Assembly (NCBI GenBank): GCA_021732805.1
Contig: JAKFUJ010000141.1
Coordinates: 1-28,973, forward strand
Source of the DNA: Betaproteobacteria bacterium
GTDB taxonomy: Bacteria; Pseudomonadota; Gammaproteobacteria; Burkholderiales; SG8-41
Length of the DNA stretch: 28,973 bases
Direction: 5' to 3'
Part shown: positions 2,833 to 13,896 of the stretch, piece after piece
How the letters are laid out: each line of letters starts with the position of its first letter
How positions within the stretch are numbered: position 1 is the stretch's first letter
Made by a program: the position numbers and the translations under genes
The notes under the pieces: model-generated
The model's database searches: none
Told to the model about the DNA's origin: nothing
The model's input: the letters and a program-made list of their open reading frames with translations, nothing else

Positions 2833-4241
2833 GCGCTTTCCCTTTCTTCCCTTTTTTTCGCCAGCCTGCCTGCCACCGTACCGATGGAACCGGCCCCCAT
2901 CGCCAGCACCACATCACCGTCACGCGCTGTGCCGGAAATCGCCGCAGGCAAATCACCCACCTGCTCGACAAACACCGGCTCCACCTTGCCCAGCACGCGC
3001 ACTGCACGCACCAGCGCACGGCCGTCTGCAGCAACAATCGGCGCTTCGCCCGCCGGATACACTTCGGTCAGCAGCAATGCATCGACCCCGGACAACACGC
3101 GCGCAAAATCCTCGAAACAATCACGGGTGCGTGTATAACGATGCGGCTGGAATGCCAGCACCAGCCGTCGTCCGGGAAACGCGCCGCGCGCAGCGGCGAT
3201 GGTGGCGGCCATTTCCACCGGGTGGTGACCATAGTCGTCGATTAGTTCAAAAGTGCCGCCGCCGGCCAATGGCACCGCGCCGTGGCGCTGAAAACGACGA
3301 CCGACGCCCTTGAATTCAGCCAAAGCCTTGATGATTTTTTCATCAGCCACACCAACTTCCATGCCGATGGCAATCGCAGCCAGCGCGTTAAGCACGTTAT
3401 GCACGCCCGCCAGATTCAGCGTGATGTCGAGATCAGGCAGCCGTCGCCCGTTATTGCGCTGCACCCGGAAATGCATGCGCCCGGCATCGGCCTTCACTGC
3501 AGTCGCGCGCACTTGCGCGCCCTCATCCAATCCGTAGGTCACCACGGTTTTGGTGAGCCTGGGCATGATCGCGCGCACGTTGGCATCATCGCTGCACAGC
3601 ACGGTCACGCCATAGAACGGCAGACGCTCGACGAAATCGACGAACGCCTGCTTCAGTTTGTCCAGCGAGTGGTCGTAGGTCTCCATGTGGTCAGAGTCGA
3701 TGTTGGTGACGACCGAAATCACCGGCTGCAAATGAAGGAACGAGGCATCCGATTCATCCGCTTCGGCGACGATGAATTCGCCGGCCCCCAGGCGGGCATG
3801 CGCACCGGCGCTCTCCAGCCGGCCGCCGATGACAAAAGTCGGATCCAGTCCGCCCTCGGCCAGCACGCTGGCGGCAAGGCTGGTGGTCGTGGTCTTGCCG
3901 TGGGTGCCGGCCACGGCTATACCCTGCTTGAGGCGCATCAGTTCTGCCAGCATCAGCGCCCGAGGTACTACGGGCACATGGCGGGCACGCGCCGCAACCA
4001 CCTCGGGGTTGTCGGATTTGACTGCGCTGGAAATCACCACGACATCGGCCGTGGCAACATGTGCCGCGGCATGCCCGATGTCGACCTTCGCGCCCATCCC
4101 GACCAGGCGGCGCGTGGCGGCGCTCTCACTCAAATCAGAACCGCTGACCACATAGCCGAGGTTCAACAAAACCTCGGCGATGCCGCTCATGCCGGCGCCG
4201 CCGATGCCCACGAAATGCACTTGTCGGACTTTATGCCGCAT
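2829..4241 (-). CDS. murC: UDP-N-acetylmuramate--L-alanine ligase
   Basis: Starts [25 protein letters not shown]; also [16 protein letters not shown] and DDYGHHP motifs. ATG at 4241 has a GAAGGAG RBS at 4253-4259. Confidence 0.97.
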
Positions 4242-4396
4242 TACCGGATCGTCTCCTTCAACGCCCGCGAATCGGCGGCGGGCCATGCTCGCGGCCGGTC
4301 GCATCCCGCGCGAACCCCCTGCGCGGAGCCCTGCTTCCTGCTCGCATGGGCCCCACCTCTGCCTACAAAATGAATCTGGCGAACCTTGTGTCTCAT
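4241..4396 (-). CDS. Small 51-aa ORF whose first 16 codons duplicate the MurC N-terminus (displaced murC 5' fragment plus spacer)
   Basis: Manual translation: [55 protein letters not shown] lies 8 nt upstream of the ATG, and its TAA overlaps the murC ATG (TAATG). Expression is unproven. Confidence 0.5.
4242..4348. repeat. 107-bp hairpin-rich spacer A between the two murC 5' copies
   Basis: Stems GCCCGC..GCGGGC and CCGCGC..GCGCGG; supplies the murC RBS; partial by-eye similarity to spacer B (8127-8234). Confidence 0.45.
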
Positions 4397-4406
4397 GTCA
4401 GACGCC

Positions 4407-5480
4407 TCATACCGGTGCCAGCTCCGTACAAAACTCGGCCACCTTCTGTGCGGCTTCCGGTTTACCCACGGCGCGCGCTGCGCGCGCCATTTCCAGCAGC
4501 TTTTGCCTGGTCAGGCCGCGCAGCGTATCCGCCAGCGATTGCGGCGTCAGCGTGGCCTGCGGTATCAACAGCGCAGCACCGCGGTCAGACAGATACGCGG
4601 CATTGCGGGTCTGGTGATCATCAGCGGCGTACGGGAACGGCACCAGGATGCTGCCGACTCCGGCCACTGCGAGTTCGGTGATAGTGGTCGCCCCGGCGCG
4701 GCAGATCACCAGATCGGCGTTGCCATATCGCAGGGCCATGTCATCAATGAAATCAACGATTTCAGCATCGACACCGGCGTTGCGATAGGTGTAACGCAAT
4801 GCTGCCAGATGCGCCTTGCCCGCTTGATGTGTCACCACCGGTCGTTCAGCCTGCGCCAGCAGCGCCAGCGCTTGCGGCACCGTGACATTGAGTGCCTTGG
4901 CGCCGAGGCTGCCGCCAACCACCAGAACCCGCAACGGACCACTGCGGTTGGCAAAACGCGCCTCGGGTGGCGGCAGGTTGACGATGTCGGTGCGCACCGG
5001 ATTGCCGGACCAGATCACATCGATGCGGCCGTTGAACGCATCGGGAAACGCTGCAAGCACGCGATCGGCAACACCGGCGAGCACGCGGTTGGCCAGACCC
5101 GGCACCGCATTCTGTTCGTGGATCAGCAATGGCTTGCCCAGGAGCGCCGCCATCATGCCGCCGGGAAACGCAGCGTAACCACCCATGCCCAGTACCACGT
5201 CGGGCCGGTGGCGGAAAATCGCCTTGGCGCTTTGCCAGAACGCAATCAGCAAAGACGCCGGCAGCAACAGCTTGCGTAACAAACTTTTGCCGCGCACACC
5301 GCCAAAGCGGATCCATACCGTCGTGTAACCGTACGGCGGCACCAGGCGCTCTTCCATGCCGCCACGTGCACCCAGCCAGACCACGTTCCAGCCGCGACCG
5401 CGTAATACTTCGGCCACAGCCAATGCGGGAAAGATGTGACCACCGGTGCCGCCGGCCATGACAAGAATGGTCAGGCTCAT
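4407..5480 (-). CDS. murG: Undecaprenyl-PP-MurNAc-pentapeptide GlcNAc transferase
   Basis: [35 protein letters not shown] and DDHQTRNA motifs. Confidence 0.97.
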
Positions 5481-6655
5481 ACCGTGAACCCCCGCATCAG
5501 TTGCCGATTCTCCCAGTCAATCCGCAACAGAACCGCCAGCGCGCAGCAGATCGCCAAAATCGCACTGCCGCCGAACGACAACAGCGGCAGCGTCAGCCCC
5601 TTGGTCGGCAACATGCCCATGTTGACGCCCATGTTGATGATGGTCTGCACACCGATCCACAGGCCGATGCCCTGCGCCACCAGCGTGGCATAAGGCCGTT
5701 CGAGCTCACCCGCCCGACGACCGATGGCAAAGGCGCGCCACACGATCCACGCGAACAGCAGCGTCAGCACCAGCACGCCGGCGAAGCCCAGTTCCTCGGC
5801 AATCACCGCCAACAAGAAGTCGGTGTGCGCTTCCGGCAGGTAAAACAGCTTTTCGACACTGGCGCCGAGCCCGACACCAAACCATTCGCCGCGGCCGAAC
5901 GCAATCAGCGCATGCGATAACTGATAACCCTTGCCGTACGGATCAGCCCACGGATCCATGAATCCGATCACGCGCTGCATGCGATAAGGGCTGCTCCAGA
6001 TCAGCAGCAGAAAACCGATGACCAGCATCACGATGAGGCCCGCGAATAAACGCCAGTTCATGCCGCCGAGGAACAGGATGCCCATCGCTATCACGGTAAT
6101 CACCGCAAACGAGCCAAAGTCGGGTTCGCGCAGAAGCAATCCACCGGTGAGCAGCATCACGCCGGCCATCGGCAGAAAACCCTTGCGCAGGCTGTGCATG
6201 AATGCCGCCTTGCGCGCGGTGTAATCGGCGGCATAGAGCACCGCGCACAGCTTCATCAACTCAGACGGTTGCAGGTTGGCAATGCCGAGTGACAGCCAGC
6301 GCCGGCTGCCGTTGACTTCGCGGCCGATCCCCGGAATCAGCACCAGTGTCAGCAGCACAAGGCCGATCACAAACAGGATGGGCGCTGCGCGCTGCCAGAT
6401 GCGCAACGGCACCTGGAACACGATGGCCCCGGCCACCAGACTCACCAGCACATAGGCGGCATGGCGCGACAGGTAATAAAACGCATTGTTACCGGTGCTG
6501 CGACTGGCTTCTGCGATCGCGATGGACGCCGAATACACCATGACCATGCCGAATCCGAGCAGCAAAACAGTAACCCAGATCAGCGCGCTGTCGTATTCCT
6601 GAACCACATTGCGCTGGCCCAGCGGCTGGTTGATGGTCGCGTAGTAGCGGCTCAC
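5477..6655 (-). CDS. ftsW: Peptidoglycan glycosyltransferase FtsW (SEDS)
   Basis: Polytopic membrane protein with [28 protein letters not shown] and LPTKGLTLP motifs. Confidence 0.97.
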
Positions 6656-8025
6656 GCGAACCTCCGCTGCAATGCCGCCACTGCGGCAGCAAACACTTGT
6701 GCGCGATGGATGTAATTGCGGTACATGTCATAACTGGCACAGGCCGGCGACAGCAGCACTGCATCGCCCGATTGCGCGGCTTTGAACGCCAGTTCCACTG
6801 CCTCTTCCATGTCAGCAGCACGCAGCACCGGCACCTTGGCGCCGATGGCCTCGGCGATGCGCGCCGCATCACGGCCGATCAGCACCACGGCGCGTGCCCG
6901 GCGTTGCGCCGCCGCCGCCAGCGGCGTGAAATCCTGTCCTTTGCCATCCCCCCCGGCAATCAGCACCACCGGTTGCGGCATGCCGTCCAGTGCGGCAACC
7001 GTGGCGCCGACGTTGGTTCCTTTGGAATCGTCGTAAAACCATATGTTATTGATTTTATTGATATTTTTTACACGATGCGGCAGCCCGTCAAAAGCCAGCC
7101 AAGCCTTGGCAATCGCCGCATCATCAACACCGATCACACGGCACAGCGCACCCGCCGCCAGTGCATTGGCGGCATTGTGCAAACCGGCAACGCGCAGCGC
7201 GGCAACCGGCGCCAGCGCGGCATCGCCGCGCATAAGCGTTTGCGTGTTGCCCGTGCCACCGATACCCCAGGCTTCGACTTCCCGCGGCACATCCAGTCCG
7301 AAACGCACCACCCGGCGTGCAGGCAATGCCATGCCGTCGCTCCATGCATCCTGACGATTGAGCACCTGCGTGCCGTTGCCAGCAAAGATGCGGCTTTTGG
7401 CAGCGGCGTATTCCCGGATGCCCTCATAACGATCAAGATGGTCTTCGGAAAGATTCAATACCGTCGCCGCGCGCGGCTGCAGCGATATCGTGCTTTCCAG
7501 TTGAAAACTCGACAACTCCAGCACAAAGGCTCCCGGTAGCGGCGCACCCTCTTCAATTTCCGTCAGCGCGTCCAGCACCGGCAAACCGATATTCCCCGCC
7601 ACCACCGGCCGCAACCCCGCCGTTTTGCAGATTTCACCGGCCAGTGCGGTCACCGTACTTTTGCCGTTGGAACCGGTAATGGCAATCACCGGCGGTGCAT
7701 CACCGCGTGCAGCCAGCGCCTGCGCGAACAGCTCGACATCGCCCACCACCGGCACGCCTTTTGCCGCTGCCTGCGCCAGTGCACCGCTGCGCCGGTCCAC
7801 ACCGGGACTCACCGCGATGATGTCAACATCGCTGACATCCGGCGCCACGCCCAGCGCGAGCGGAATCTGCGGCAGCTCGCTGCGCAGTGTGGCTGCATGC
7901 GGAGGCGCTGCGCGACTGTCCGTCGCGCGCACGTCGGCGCCGCAGCGCTGCAGCCAGCGCGCCATCGACAACCCGGTATCACCGAGACCAACGACCATTA
8001 CGCGTGCACCCTTGAGATCAAACAT
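6652..8025 (-). CDS. murD: UDP-MurNAc-L-Ala--D-glutamate ligase
   Basis: [48 protein letters not shown] and SPACAS motifs; ATG at 8025. Confidence 0.97.
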
Positions 8026-8027
8026 CA

Positions 8028-8057
8028 ATTCCGGTTTCGCATTCCGTTTTGCATTCC
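8028..8057. repeat. Short imperfect tandem repeat (GGAAT x3 on the minus strand, 12-13 bp period) just upstream of murD
   Basis: ATTCC occurs at 8028, 8041 and 8053. The minus strand reads GGAATGCAAAAC GGAATGCGAAACC GGAAT. Confidence 0.7.
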
Positions 8058-8060
8058 CTG

Positions 8061-8234
8061 CTACCGCAACTTCAGCGTCGACAGACCGATCAGCGCCAGC
8101 ATCATCGTGATAATCCAGAAACGCACTGGGTAGTTTTGGCTGCGGCCGCCATGTCGCGCGAGCGCAACATGGCTTAACCTGCCAAGCAGGTTAGCCTTCG
8201 CCGAAACCACCCCGTCGTTCGCTTTTCTGTTCAT
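8061..8234 (-). CDS. Small 57-aa ORF ending in a duplicate of the MraY C-terminal helix (spacer plus displaced mraY 3' fragment)
   Basis: ATG directly follows the mraY TAG, in the same frame. Translation: [57 protein letters not shown]. The last 21 aa match the MraY C-terminus at 20/21. Expression is unproven. Confidence 0.55.
   Translation of the reverse strand: MNRKANDGVVSAKANLLGRLSHVALARHGGRSQNYPVRFWIITMMLALIGLSTLKLR
8127..8234. repeat. 108-bp hairpin-rich spacer B between the two mraY 3' copies
   Basis: Stems GCCATGT..ACATGGC and TAACCTGC-caa-GCAGGTTA; partial by-eye similarity to spacer A. Confidence 0.45.
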
Positions 8235-9320
8235 CTATCTCAATTTCAGTGTCGAGAGCCCGATTAACACCAGCATCATCGTGATGATCCAGAAGCGAAC
8301 GACGACCTGGTTTTCTTTCCAGCCTTTCAATTCATAGTGGTGATGCAGCGGCGCCATGCGGAATATGCGTTTGCCGGTGAGCTTGAATGAAGCCACCTGC
8401 AGCATCACCGACAGGGTTTCGACGACAAACACGCCGCCCATGATGAACAGCACGATTTCCTGGCGCACGATGACGGCGATGGTGCCCAGCGCAGCACCCA
8501 GTGCCAGCGCGCCGACATCGCCCATGAACACTTCCGCCGGATAGGCGTTGAACCACAAAAACGCAAGGCCGGCGCCGGCCAGCGCGCCGCAGATCACCGT
8601 CAGTTCGCCGGCCCCCGGGATGTACGGGAACGCGAGATACTTGGCAAACACGGCATTGCCCGCCACGTAGGCAAAAATGCCCAGTGCACTGCCGACCATC
8701 ACCGTGGGCATGATCGCCAGACCGTCCAGTCCGTCGGTCAAATTGACGGCATTGCTGGTGCCCACAATCACCAGATAGGTCATGGTGATGAACCCGATGG
8801 CGCCCAGCGGGTAAGTCACCTGCTTGAAAAACGGCACAATGAATTCGGTCTGCGCCGGCAGATTGGTCGAGTAAGCAATAAATACCGCCGCACCGAGGCC
8901 AAGCACTGACTGCCAGAAAAACTTCACCCGCGCCGGCAGCCCTTTGGGATTGCGATGCACCACCTTGCGGTAATCGTCAACCCAGCCGATGGCGCCAAAT
9001 CCCATGGTCACGACCAGCACTACCCAGACAAAACGGTTCCGCAGGTCTGCCCACAGCAGTGTCGTAATAATGATCGACACCAGGATCAGCGCACCGCCCA
9101 TGGTCGGTGTTCCGGCTTTGATCAGATGGGTCTGCGGACCATCGTCGCGCACTGCCTGACCGATTTTGTACGCTGTCAGCCTGCGGATCAGTGCAGGTCC
9201 GACAATGAACGAGATCATCAGCGAGGTCAGACAAGCCAGCACCGCGCGCAGCGTCAGGTAACTGAACACATTGAAGGCGCGGACATACTGTTCCAGCCAT
9301 TGCGCCAGTTCAAGCAGCAT
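8235..9320 (-). CDS. mraY: Phospho-N-acetylmuramoyl-pentapeptide transferase
   Basis: [32 protein letters not shown] and MAPLHHHYE motifs; about 10 TM segments. Confidence 0.98.
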
Positions 9321-10688: not shown

Positions 10689-12166
10689 CTTTTGCTCCCG
10701 GAGAGCGCAGCGCGCACGACCGCGGCGTCGCTGTATCGCCGCTTCACGCCGCCGATTTCCTGGTAACGCTCATGTCCCTTGCCGGCAATCAGCACAATGT
10801 CGCCGCGGCGCGCCCGCGCCAGCGTCTGCATAATGGCCTGTCGCCGGTCGACGATCTGCTGGTGTTTCCCGGCAACGCCTTCGGCAATGTCGGCGATGAT
10901 GGCCACCGGATCTTCATGACGGGGGTTGTCGCTGGTAATGATCACTTCATCAGCCAGGCGCGAGACCACGGCGCCCATCAACGGCCGCTTGCCGCGATCT
11001 CGGTCACCGCCGCCGCCGAATACGCAAAAAAGCCTTGAACCTTGTCCTGCCGCCGCACGCAGGCTGCATAGCACTTTTTCCAGCGCATCCGGCGTATGCG
11101 CGTAATCGACGATGACCAGCGGCGCGCGACCTCCACCATAACGCTCCATCCGCCCCGGCGCCGGCTGAACTTTTTCCAGCGCTGCAACCGACAGATCCAG
11201 ACCGACATCGCTGGCCAGCAGCGTCGCCAGCGAGCCAAGCAGGTTCGCTGCATTAAAACCGCCGATCAACGGACTGTGTAACGTTGCCCGACCCCAGGGT
11301 GAAGCAATGTCAAATGAAACGCCATCCAGACCGACGCGCAGGTTTTTGCCTTCAACACAGGGGGTTTTCGCGCGCTTCCCCCGCAACTGGAAACCATAAC
11401 CGAGCACTTTCGCGCGTTTGTGCTTCCAGCACTGGGTCAGTTCGCGCCCGAATGCATCATCGAGGTTAAGTACAGCATGGCTCAATGTCGGGCAGCGAAA
11501 GAGCTTGGTTTTTGCAGACTGATAACGCCGCATCGTGCCGTGATAATCGAGATGATCACGGGTCAGATTGGTCAGCATTGCGACATCAAATTCAACGCCG
11601 GCCAACCGGTCCTGATCAAGGCCGATCGACGAAACTTCCATACTCACTGCACGTGCGCCGGCATCTGCCAGCGTGCGCATGCGTGCATGCAGCGTTATCG
11701 CATCCGGCGTGGTGTTGATGGTGTGGGTCTGCGCACCCAGGCGGCCAGGAAATCCGCTGCCCAGCGTGCCAATCACCGCACATTTGCGTCTGGCACAGGT
11801 CAGCGACTGCGCAATCCACTGGCTGCACGACGTTTTGCCATTGGTGCCGGTGATACCGACTGTCCACAGTTTCACGCTCGGTTTGCCGTACACCTCGCTG
11901 GCAATGACGCCGGCCTGTCGGCGCAACTGCGGTACGCCTAGATTCGGCACCCGCCAGCGCGGATTCCATGCATATCCGCCGCTGTCCCACAGTACTGATG
12001 CCGCACCGTTGGCGATTGCCTGTGCAATGTAATCACGGCCGTCGCGTGTTTCGCCGGGATAGGCGACAAAGGTGTCGCCCTTTCTGACTGCGCGACTGTC
12101 TGCCGTCAAACGATGCACACCAAGCCGGCCTACTGCCTGCAGGTCGAGACGAGCCGCGGGCATCAC
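10685..12166 (-). CDS. murE: UDP-MurNAc-dipeptide--meso-DAP ligase
   Basis: GITGTNGKTS, TTPD, NLTRDHLDYH, DYAHTPDAL, DNPR (meso-DAP specificity) and GKGHE motifs. Confidence 0.97.
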   Translation of the reverse strand: MMPAARLDLQAVGRLGVHRLTADSRAVRKGDTFVAYPGETRDGRDYIAQAIANGAASVLWDSGGYAWNPRWRVPNLGVPQLRRQAGVIASEVYGKPSVKLWTVGITGTNGKTSCSQWIAQSLTCARRKCAVIGTLGSGFPGRLGAQTHTINTTPDAITLHARMRTLADAGARAVSMEVSSIGLDQDRLAGVEFDVAMLTNLTRDHLDYHGTMRRYQSAKTKLFRCPTLSHAVLNLDDAFGRELTQCWKHKRAKVLGYGFQLRGKRAKTPCVEGKNLRVGLDGVSFDIASPWGRATLHSPLIGGFNAANLLGSLATLLASDVGLDLSVAALEKVQPAPGRMERYGGGRAPLVIVDYAHTPDALEKVLCSLRAAAGQGSRLFCVFGGGGDRDRGKRPLMGAVVSRLADEVIITSDNPRHEDPVAIIADIAEGVAGKHQQIVDRRQAIMQTLARARRGDIVLIAGKGHERYQEIGGVKRRYSDAAVVRAALSGSKR

Positions 12167-13896
12167 ACTTCCTCCCGCACCAAGGGCGCGTCTTCCGGCA
12201 TCAGCACTGTTGTTTTCCCGGGCGCATCCGGCGGCACTGCGAGCAGGCGCAGCGTGCCGGCAGCAACCTGACTGAACACCGGCGCTGCCACGGCGCCGCC
12301 GTAGTACTTTCCGGCGGAGGGCTCATCGATCATCACGGCGATCACCACACGCGGCCGTGTTGCCGGTGCCATGCCGACGAACGACGCCACATAACGATTG
12401 GTGGCATAGGCTTTGCCCTCAAGCTTGTGCGCAGTTCCCGTCTTGCCGGCAACCGTATAACCCGACACCTGGGCGCCTGGCGCAGTGCCGCCGGGCTGCG
12501 CCGCCAGCTCGAGCATTTTGCGCACCGCGAGCGCGGTTTGTGCTGACACCACGCGTGTGCCCTGCACCGGGCTGTCGCGTTTCAGCAGGGTCACCGGATG
12601 CAGCATGCCATCAGACGCGAATATGGTGTACGACCGCGCAAGCTGCATCAGCGATACTGATATGCCATAACCGTACGACATCGTCGCCTGTTCAATCGGC
12701 TTCCATGTCGCGTAACCGCGCAACCGTCCAGACACTTCACCAGGAAATCCCGAGCGCGGCGGCAAACCAAAGCCGGCGCGATTAAACAGACTCCACAACG
12801 CTTCAGATGGCAACGCCAGCCCCATTTTGGCAGTACCAACATTCGAGGATTTCTGGATCACCTGCGCCACTGTCAGCGCGCCTTGCGGATGCGCGTCATG
12901 AATTGTGCGATTACCGATGGTCAACTGCCCAGGTGCGGTCTGGATGATCGTTCCGGGTTGGTACAACCCTGCCTCCAACGCCGCTGCCGCAGTAAATGGC
13001 TTAAGCGTCGAGCCCGGCTCGAACAGGTCGGTGACTACGCGATTGCGGGTGCGGCGCGGATCCAGATTGCCTCGGTTATTGGGGTTGTATGCCGGCAGGT
13101 TCGCCATCGCCAGAATCTAGCCGCTTTCGGCATCAAGCACGACGATGCCGCCGGCCTTTGCGCGATGCGCAGCAACCGCTGCTTTGAGTTCGCGGAACGC
13201 AAGGTACTGGATACGTGCGTCTATCGACAAACGCAGTTGTTGCCCGTTTTGCGGTATGCGTATGCTTTCGACGTCTTCGACAATGCGCCCCAGACGGTCC
13301 TTGATCACACGGCGGCTGCCGGGTTTACCGGCCAGCTTGTCTTCGAATGCGAGCTCCAGCGCCTCCTGACCTTTGTCATCCACACCGGTGAACCCGATGA
13401 TGTGCGACATCACCTCGCCCGCCGGGTAATAACGGCGATGCTCGCGCTGCAGAAAAACACCGGGAATGCCCAGTTGCACTACGCGCTCCGCCTGTTCCGG
13501 AGGCAGCTGCCGTTTCAAATAGACGAATTCACGCCGGTTGTCGGACAACTTGGCGCGCAACTCATCGTTGCTGATTTCCAGCAGTTTGGCGAGCTTGCGC
13601 AGATCAGCGGGCTCGGCTTCGATATCGGCAGGACTGGCGGCGACTGATTCCACCGGTGTTGAAATCGCCATCGGCTCATTGTTGCGATCAACAATCATGC
13701 CGCGGCTGGCGCCGATTTCGATAACCCGCGAATAGCGGGACTCACCTTTGCGCTGCAGGAAATCGTTGTTCAGCGCCTGCAGCCACAACGCGCGCCCGGC
13801 AAGCGCGATAAACCATGCCGCGAGCAGCAACAGCAGCAGGTTTGCGCGCCACGTTGGCAGGCTCGGCGACGGCTGCCGGGTTGTTGCCGGCTTCAT
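12163..13896 (-). CDS. ftsI: FtsI/PBP3 transpeptidase interrupted by one in-frame TAG (codon 260); N-part 13117-13896, C-part 12163-13107
   Basis: The two ORFs share a frame and read ...DAESG-TAG-ILAMANLP, where the family has GEILAMA. Catalytic motifs SxxK (STLK), SxN (SSN) and KTG are intact; an N-terminal TM anchor is present. Could be a nonsense allele, readthrough or a sequencing error. Confidence 0.9.

Follow-up and report, generated by a model that had tools for sequence, protein, structure and literature searches.

Small structured repeats between duplicated gene ends at mraY and murC in the dcw cluster of an uncultured Burkholderiales lineage

Insertion with long target duplication has been described in bacteria as events that duplicate more than 30 bp of target, of variable length and often over gene 3′ ends, with no mobility gene and by an unknown mechanism (Nobusato 2000; Furuta et al. 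2010, PMC2853133). Among small repeats, the YPAL/RU-2 elements of Yersinia make variable target duplications of 3–26 bp (De Gregorio et al. 2006, as quoted in PMC2229807). The tRNA-linked repeats (TLRs) of Escherichia coli lie downstream of tRNA and rRNA genes and end in an 18–19-bp copy of the gene 3′ end, their function being mostly unknown (Egan and Landy 1978; PMC8144298). Here, we describe two gene-end duplications in the division and cell wall (dcw) cluster of a Betaproteobacteria bacterium of the order Burkholderiales (GenBank assembly GCA_021732805.1, contig JAKFUJ010000141.1, positions 1 to 28,973). The window is this whole stretch of 28,973 nt. One duplication, at the 3′ end of mraY, encloses a repeat named element X, and the other, at the 5′ end of murC, encloses a repeat named element Y. 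The dcw genes and all described features are on the minus strand. G000 denotes the window's own genome, G001, G005, G009 and so on denote the other genomes compared, and L numbers denote loci.

Duplicated gene ends at mraY and murC

We consider it probable that the two scars are independent, old insertions of small, protein-less structured repeats that duplicated their targets. Direct copies of the target flank each insert on both sides, and consequently one complete gene survives at mraY and at murC (Table 1). The initial annotation had reported recoded second copies of the mraY 3′ end and the murC 5′ end, and re-measurement returned the same values. The mraY tail copies (8235–8300 and 8061–8126) differ at 12 of 66 nt with one amino acid change (V/A), and they form the strongest short-range direct repeat in the window. 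The murC head copies (4194–4241 and 4349–4396) differ at 15 of 48 nt and are identical at 14 of 16 amino acids. This second pair is weak at the bare nucleotide level (z 2.9); the duplication is confirmed by sister genomes that share the layout, in which the two head copies differ at only 2–4 of 36 nt.

The mraY duplication originally started at AAAAC upstream of the tail, and the target copy of about 66–80 nt comprises the tail, the stop codon and a few further bases. Over its first 50 nt, the working tail does not differ from the only mraY tail of the sister genome G022; an X-linked ending (AGA TAG) follows. At murC, the duplication extends degenerately to about codon 19, near position 4340, and the target of about 57 nt includes the ribosome-binding region and the gene head.

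G000 is a fragmented bin (474 contigs, 84% complete), and an in-frame TAG in ftsI hints at consensus errors, which might favour an assembly artefact, that is, a metagenome bin chimera of two strains. However, Logan contigs from runs of three separate studies, assembled independently, cross the mraY scar with 0–2 differences; they span positions 7964–8400, 7987–8301 and 7987–8283, from the murD start through the tail copy and the spacer into mraY. The murC scar is covered by two overlapping contigs, and homologous scars are present in assemblies of other species. Since independent assemblies span the scars, the sequence is real, and the probability of a chimera is negligible. The ftsI (PBP3) stop itself lies at 13117–13119 on the minus strand, in place of a conserved Glu, which is part of TGEILAMAN in three sister genomes. 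It splits the gene into a dimerisation-domain open reading frame (ORF) at 13120–13896 and a transpeptidase ORF at 12166–13107, and it may be a bin consensus error, a strain variant or a real nonsense codon.

Table 1. Features of the mraY and murC scars, with positions in the window
Feature	Position	Strand	Remarks
mraY	8235–9320	−	complete working gene
Working mraY tail (T1), last 21 codons and TAG	8235–8300	−	upstream copy of the duplicated target; sequence comparison
Spacer between the mraY tail copies	8127–8234	−	108 nt
57-codon ORF, from just after the mraY stop (TAGATG), through X, to the stop of the displaced tail	8061–8234	−	open in four genus carriers
Linker from the mraY stop to the inverted target copy	8224–8234	−	11 nt; begins with the ATG of the 57-codon ORF (TAGATG)
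Inverted target copy (a′), 5′ strand of the closing stem	8204–8223	−	17/20 nt match
Element X, Y-shaped structured repeat of about 86 nt	8127–8215	−	fold, covariance model, covariation
Displaced mraY tail (T2) with its own TAG	8061–8126	−	runs on into the lineage's native mraY–murD spacer
murD	6655–8025	−	native by sequence comparison, as are ftsW and murG (block 4407–8025)
ftsW	5477–6655	−	
murG	4407–5480	−	
51-codon ORF, from the old murC start, through Y, to a stop in TAATG overlapping the working murC ATG	4241–4396	−	open in five genus carriers
Displaced murC head, behind the murG stop	4340–4396	−	codons 1–16 clear, about 17–19 degenerate
Spacer between the murC head copies	4242–4348	−	107 nt
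Y core: GAGCAGGAAGCAGGG, variable hairpin, then GATGCGACCGGCCGCGA	4289–4343	−	dispersed repeat, 29/151 genomes
Y 3′ tail	4242–4288	−	new Shine-Dalgarno (GGAG, about 4252–4256)
Working murC start, first 16 codons	4194–4241	−	gene start at 4241

The genus is an uncultured lineage of Burkholderiales from freshwater and drinking water, and we looked for the scars in 24 further species of it. Among the genus genomes, the mraY scar is carried by G000, G011, G001 and G021 but not by G009 and G022, and the murC scar by G000, G009, G022, G005 and G001 but not by G011 and G021. The mraY scar was not found in the remaining species with a readable mraY–murD junction (8 aligned, the others judged by hit spacing), nor the murC scar in those with a readable murG–murC junction (7 aligned, the others judged by hit overlap). 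The empty mraY sites of sister species have no X, and the empty murC sites no Y. Thus, the same scars do occur in related genomes, but their independent carrier lists indicate two separate insertion/deletion polymorphisms (about 174 and 155 bp) and not the ends of one piece. Downstream of the displaced mraY tail, each carrier has the mraY–murD spacer type of its own lineage.

These results bear on the xenologous replacement proposed in the initial annotation, by which 4349–8126 would be a piece of the dcw operon of another lineage and the spacers its cassette ends or stubs of the lost native murD 5′ and murG 3′ ends. It is true that both extra copies face inward, that the copy differences are mostly silent, and that the displaced mraY tail of G000 is closer to the tails of G009 and G023 than to that of G022. 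However, the murD+ftsW+murG block and the murF+mraY+murC+murB flanks agree in their maximum-likelihood trees on the topology around G000, which is sister to (G009, G011, G022) with support 1.0 in both trees and with branch lengths of 0.138 and 0.131. In sliding windows from murF to murB, the nearest relatives are constantly G009, G011 and G022, and the GC content at third codon positions (0.68–0.80 across the genes read in frame) has no step between block and flanks. Furthermore, the two scars are inherited independently, and the spacers are members of dispersed repeat families, which rules them out as murD or murG stubs. By phylogeny and composition, murD-ftsW-murG is native, not foreign; the congruent trees refute a foreign cassette by the criterion of the initial annotation itself, its probability being extremely low, and nothing at the locus indicates lineage-to-lineage exchange of essential cell-wall genes, so that a false lead is removed. 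In the mraY 3′ end and X (window 8235–8440 compared with G011, L002/L092), G000 and G011 are 96–99% identical, while the flanks are about 85–90% identical. This peak suggests a recent cross-species exchange of the insert-bearing segment.

The scars resemble the insertions of Nobusato and Furuta in their long duplications (66–80 nt at mraY, about 57 nt at murC), in the comparison of empty and filled sites, made here within the genus, and in having no mobility gene. Those cases, unlike ours, were single events involving kilobase restriction-modification genes; the cargo here is non-coding, about 90–110 nt long, and X and Y are 60–100-nt repeats that number tens per genome and follow defined junction rules. 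The YPAL/RU-2 repeats, as far as PMC2229807 describes them, are like X and Y small non-coding structured repeats without a terminal TA motif, are not AT-rich, and have targets that span or adjoin dyad symmetry. Going by the descriptions, they are set apart from X by its far longer duplications (19–107 nt), its target-derived closing stem, its A-run junction and its Burkholderiales host. TLRs are tied to stable-RNA operons, whereas X and Y also hit protein-gene ends, gene starts and coding regions, with longer duplications.

Elements X and Y and the junctions of X

The 108-nt spacer folds with −53.9 kcal/mol (z −5.4), and its relatives lie at unrelated loci of other genomes in the order. X consists of an outer stem, a conserved hairpin GGCTAACCTGC/GCAGGTTAAGCC and a variable second hairpin, with a 3′ end reading ..GCCAAAAC... 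The alignment of ten X copies has covariation in 5 pairs and was used to build a covariance model, R1, which scores the X of the window at 90.5 bits. R1 found X in 61 of 151 sampled Burkholderiales genomes, in 39 of 96 genera, with up to at least 29 copies per genome and with tandem arrays in some. In G000, the X of the window is accompanied by one weak second match (30 bits, contig 30), no further copy of either spacer was found, and the X and Y families are nearly extinct in this genus. A search of Rfam 15 over 4000–8500 returned nothing relevant to X or Y at E up to 5, and no intrinsic terminators were predicted at either element.

We surveyed 72 X singletons or arrays from 71 loci. In 36 of the 72 sites, X lies between direct target repeats of 19–107 nt with 77–100% identity, well above shuffled controls (z over 8), mostly with 0–6 nt between X and the downstream copy; at mraY, X sits 11 nt past the stop codon. 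At young sites, the duplications are identical (L057, 81/81; L202, 36/36; L074, 26/26), which means that the duplication was made in place. The targets include the tails of mraY, argF, serS and other genes, gene starts, purL, and the 5′ half of tRNA-Ser(GGA) up to the anticodon loop. At 27 of the 36 sites, the upstream copy contains the end of a reading frame that has at least 100 codons and runs in the same direction as X, as at mraY.

The junctions follow further regularities. In 21 of 37 cases, the duplication is immediately preceded by AAA[AC], for which the background is 10% (p about 1e-12). The 3′ end of X (..GCCAAAA..) joins the downstream copy inside a pre-existing A-run of the target, which is GAAAAC at mraY, and the target and the junction read alike (e.g., GGAAAGAAAACCAGGT and GGAGCCAAAACCAGGT). 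On the 5′ side of X, an inverted copy of 13–20 nt of the target, spanning the duplication start, was found at 26 of the 36 sites (p about 1e-16). At mraY, this copy (a′) reads AGCGAACGACGGGGTGGTTT, and the reverse complement of native mraY is AGCGAACGACGACCTGGTTT; it matches 17 of 20 nt at 8294–8313 (AAACCAGGTCGTCGTTCGCT, the last 20 nt of the 22-nt stretch 8294–8315). The first 22 nt after the mraY stop had also been considered as a duplicated spacer, which was ruled out, these nucleotides being mostly the inverted target copy. Consequently, the closing stem of each X is built from its own target. Clean single-copy cases are L074, L222, L215 and L068. Judged from these junctions, the mobile core of X is only about 55–75 nt, and its closing stem comes from the target. 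The A-run junction, the target-derived closing stem and the long variable duplication are thus the junction rules of X, counted over the 72 sites; the searchable reviews describe this repeat class only loosely.

The mraY tail is also hit by X in G052, a member of another family, where the inverted copy matches the codons of G052 itself. This match speaks for independent hits on a preferred site and against common descent.

Could X have been present beside the gene already, slippage or unequal exchange between short repeats then making a local tandem duplication without any insertion? Arrays of target plus X do exist, some of them ending in a degenerate X (L057, L077, L062), and the A-run provides microhomology at the junction. 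However, the empty mraY and murC sites of sister species have neither X nor Y, and the downstream target copies at mraY, argF, L074 and L222 are followed by native sequence, not by a second X. Such a process also leaves the inverted target copy unexplained. Among the 24 genus genomes, no allele with X and a single target copy was seen at mraY or murC. We therefore regard local duplication without insertion as highly improbable and retain insertion with target duplication as the reading of both scars.

Several X loci deserve separate mention. The tRNA-Ser(GGA) gene has been hit repeatedly in four genera (L048, L061, L067 and L201, in G027, G160, G102 and G081, respectively); there, the upstream region and the 5′ half of the tRNA are duplicated before one to four X copies, and an intact tRNA lies downstream. 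At L047 (G031:C1, about 1508–1621), two X units of 57 nt each follow one another within purL, in frame, and add 38 residues (GGFGEDLPAKQVSRSQND, twice) in a loop of an intact 1000-codon frame. In this, X resembles the Rickettsia palindromic elements, small palindromic repeats that are tolerated in frame inside genes. At six loci of G049 (L204–L209, G049:C1), X is part of a composite repeat unit of 143–280 nt, 97–100% identical between loci, which holds a 64-nt module once or twice, lacks a flanking target duplication and was recently amplified. Finally, at L200 (G081:C1:793732-796585), inverted 153-nt X-bearing repeats (680–832 and 2023–2175) flank about 1.2 kb with a MazF/PemK-like toxin gene and small partner ORFs. 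This interval may be a cassette moved or framed by X-bearing repeats; as an autonomous parent element it was ruled out, since it holds a toxin-antitoxin-like pair and no transposase.

Element Y, of about 100 nt, lies inside the first 19 codons of murC. The Y family has a conserved core of GAGCAGGAAGCAGGG, a variable hairpin and GATGCGACCGNCCGCGA, and it occurs in 29 of the 151 genomes of the order, in arrays as well. Y sites are mirrored with respect to X sites: the upstream target copy adjoins the Y 5′ end at a shared GCATGAG, and the downstream copy begins 47–51 nt after the Y core, at other Y sites too. In G166, which belongs to another family, Y lies in murC at the same codon-12 junction. 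Between the nuoA stop and the nuoB start of two genera (L085/L086, in G108 and G042), Y is present as one copy or as a three-copy array, and the segment with the Shine-Dalgarno and ATG is apparently repeated, a repetition that is not significant in the flank test (z near 0). It should be noted that the murC frame is open upstream to an ATG at 4304 inside Y (window 4242–4304, minus strand). An automatic caller could thus annotate a 491-aa MurC with a spurious 21-residue extension.

Silent differences and through-reading frames

The working and displaced mraY tails differ at 11–14 of 66 nt in the four carriers, with 0–1 replacement in each. Among the displaced tails of four genomes, 47 nucleotide differences are silent and 3 are replacements, and the tail copies of G052 differ at 13 of 72 nt, with 13 silent differences and no replacement. 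As about 76% of random changes in the mraY tail would be replacements, the displaced tail is not simply decaying. At murC, the displaced head of G005 is decaying (4 of 5 differences are replacements). A diversity-generating retroelement was rejected as the source of the differences, which are of all types in both directions and not adenine-specific, and G000 has no RVT_1 match. Ribosomal bypass was dropped, the working gene copies being complete.

The best explanation of the silent differences would be that the insertions are old and that homologous exchange has reset the displaced copies from insert-free alleles. Exchange tracts coming from such alleles would stop at heterology, that is, at the insert boundary, thereby resetting the displaced copy from the working gene.

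Both inserts are crossed by small open frames. One runs from just after the mraY stop through X, and the other from the old murC start through Y (Table 1); in G166, the equivalent murC upstream ORF ends in ATGA on the start codon. The residues encoded by the inserts vary freely: G000 and G021 differ there by about 9 nucleotides, which change 6 amino acids. A Pfam search with both small ORFs returned no match. Probably, to judge from this pattern, the ORFs are kept for through-translation, coupling murD and murC to upstream translation, and not for their peptides.

The initial annotation had also proposed that both copies are under selection as translated peptides or swappable termini. In that case, selection instead of recombination would explain the silent-only divergence, and the displaced copies would be kept as a 57-aa membrane peptide reusing the last MraY helix or, at murC, as an initiation region. 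This proposal is supported in part: no carrier of either scar has a broken frame, and the upstream frame at murC invariably terminates on the true start codon, which is the case in two very diverged lineages. The silent excess given above, in the four genomes as in G052, also fits selection. On the other hand, the X- and Y-encoded residues change freely, and neither peptide matches a family. The frame upstream of the displaced tail in G052 has no start codon, yet the tail is intact, and the displaced murC head of G005 accumulates replacements. In addition, all three replacement changes of the displaced mraY tails fall in the half adjoining X, as the resetting of displaced copies by exchange predicts. 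Selection on the displaced copies is therefore rather unlikely in our estimate.

Possible mode of insertion and implications

Based on the anatomy of the junctions, we tentatively suggest a target-primed copy-in with host enzymes, to which we assign somewhat less than an even chance. The T-run 3′ end of a nicked bottom strand would pair with the A-run end of an X template, either RNA or single-stranded DNA, and prime copying. The new strand would then snap back on itself over 10–20 nt, giving the inverted target copy. With nicks lying 20–100 nt apart, it would next be joined to the opposite side of the break. Fill-in by host polymerases would finally produce the long target duplication. In this anatomy, X resembles short interspersed elements (SINEs), which are non-autonomous and combine an A-rich 3′ end, meeting a target T-run, with variable target duplications and irregular 5′ junctions. 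The likeness is one of junction anatomy only, as no reverse transcriptase tracks X. From a classical miniature inverted-repeat transposable element, X differs in its closing stem, which is target-derived and different at every site, and in its duplication, which is long and variable, not short and fixed.

Known mobility enzymes were sought in the sampled genomes. Y1_Tnp (PF01797) is not linked to X, being found in 40 of 61 X-positive and 52 of 90 X-negative genomes, and it had no match in G049, G155, G130 and G027, which have from 12 to at least 29 X copies. RVT_1 (PF00078) is likewise not linked (23 of 61 X-positive genomes, 52 of 151 overall) and was not found in G049, whose X copies are 97–100% identical, or in G108, G080, G130 and G155; reverse transcriptases outside Pfam RVT_1 were not searched. 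The complete genome G049 thus has at least 29 X copies, many of them 97–100% identical, and neither Y1_Tnp nor RVT_1. Y1 transposases and reverse transcriptases were rejected as drivers of X for lack of association.

This also separates X from repetitive extragenic palindromes (REPs) and the bacterial interspersed mosaic elements (BIMEs) formed by them. These, like X, are GC-rich palindromic repeats that often lie just past stop codons and cluster in arrays. However, X is 60–90 nt long with a three-way or two-hairpin (Y-shaped) fold instead of a simple palindrome of 20–40 nt, the GTAG or CGTC head is not in its consensus, and it has no link to the Y1 (RAYT, REP-associated tyrosine) transposases. 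To our knowledge, REPs with long target duplications have not been reported (cf., in part, PMC2817692).

A further proposal of the initial annotation was an integrative element that supplies recoded gene ends, as the e14 prophage does at icd. The corresponding explanation is that the scars are remnants of site-specific integrative elements (prophages, integrative and conjugative elements or cis-mobilizable elements) whose interior was deleted to about 100 bp. The small insert in a gene end that is present twice agrees with this proposal. In e14, in phage 21 at icd and in the dusA- or tRNA-targeting islands, the gene end also occurs twice with mostly silent differences and the gene is functional, as at mraY and murC. 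The layout recalls attL, remnant and attR with mosaic tails; in all four carriers, X is accompanied by the same final 16 nt or so in the working tail (AGA TAG) and by the same opening codon in the displaced one (GTG), and tRNA genes are among the targets. However, e14-type elements encode an integrase, use a single fixed attachment site and bring kilobases of cargo; the scars have none of these. The ORF lists of the two X loci inspected (L045 and L200) contain no evident integrase or transposase, and the scars (155–174 bp) hold no gene. Instead of a single attachment site there are diverse targets (mraY, argF, serS, purL, tRNA-Ser and others), their duplicated stretches are 19–107 nt long, and the insert is always the same repeat of about 60–90 nt and not a random remnant. 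Moreover, the inverted target copy and the A-run junction are foreign to the att sites of tyrosine recombinases. An origin from integrative elements is thus very unlikely, and we return to the insertion of small repeats that duplicate their targets.

Several observations weigh against this reading or its parts. The proposed mode of insertion is drawn from junction anatomy, and no enzyme, intermediate or transposition event has been seen. The surveyed loci are biased to the best-scoring X copies, and half of the X sites have no detectable flanking repeat; these may be old or may reflect another mode of arrival. No inverted target copy accompanies X at the tRNA-Ser sites. Some arrays (L057) terminate in a degenerate X instead of bare target, so that X loci are also shaped by unequal exchange. 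The anatomy of Y is mirrored and less well quantified than that of X; an inverted target copy is not claimed for Y, because part of the match, GCCGCCGA, is a conserved Y motif. Furthermore, under simple neutral decay, the displaced mraY tails should be less protein-like than they are, and their refreshing by recombination is inferred, not measured.

Literature searches, with subscription journals mostly outside their scope, found no description of these Burkholderiales repeat families. Possibly, though we hold this with less than even confidence, X and Y belong to a broad unnamed class of protein-less hairpin elements that spread by target-primed copy-in. If so, hits in essential gene ends, tRNAs and start regions would be survivable thanks to the 20–100-nt target duplication, and the class would represent a general transposase-free mode of DNA mobility in prokaryotes. 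If the junction rules reflect host-driven copy-in, they would explain the transposase-free colonisation of compact genomes and the pile-up of such repeats at gene ends.

For annotation, such scars yield short ORFs, duplicated gene ends and apparent recoding, and they may be mistaken for horizontal transfer, programmed recoding or pseudogenes. As for the physiology of the cell, the inserts put very stable hairpins into the dcw operon, and the conserved through-reading ORFs suggest how its expression stays intact.

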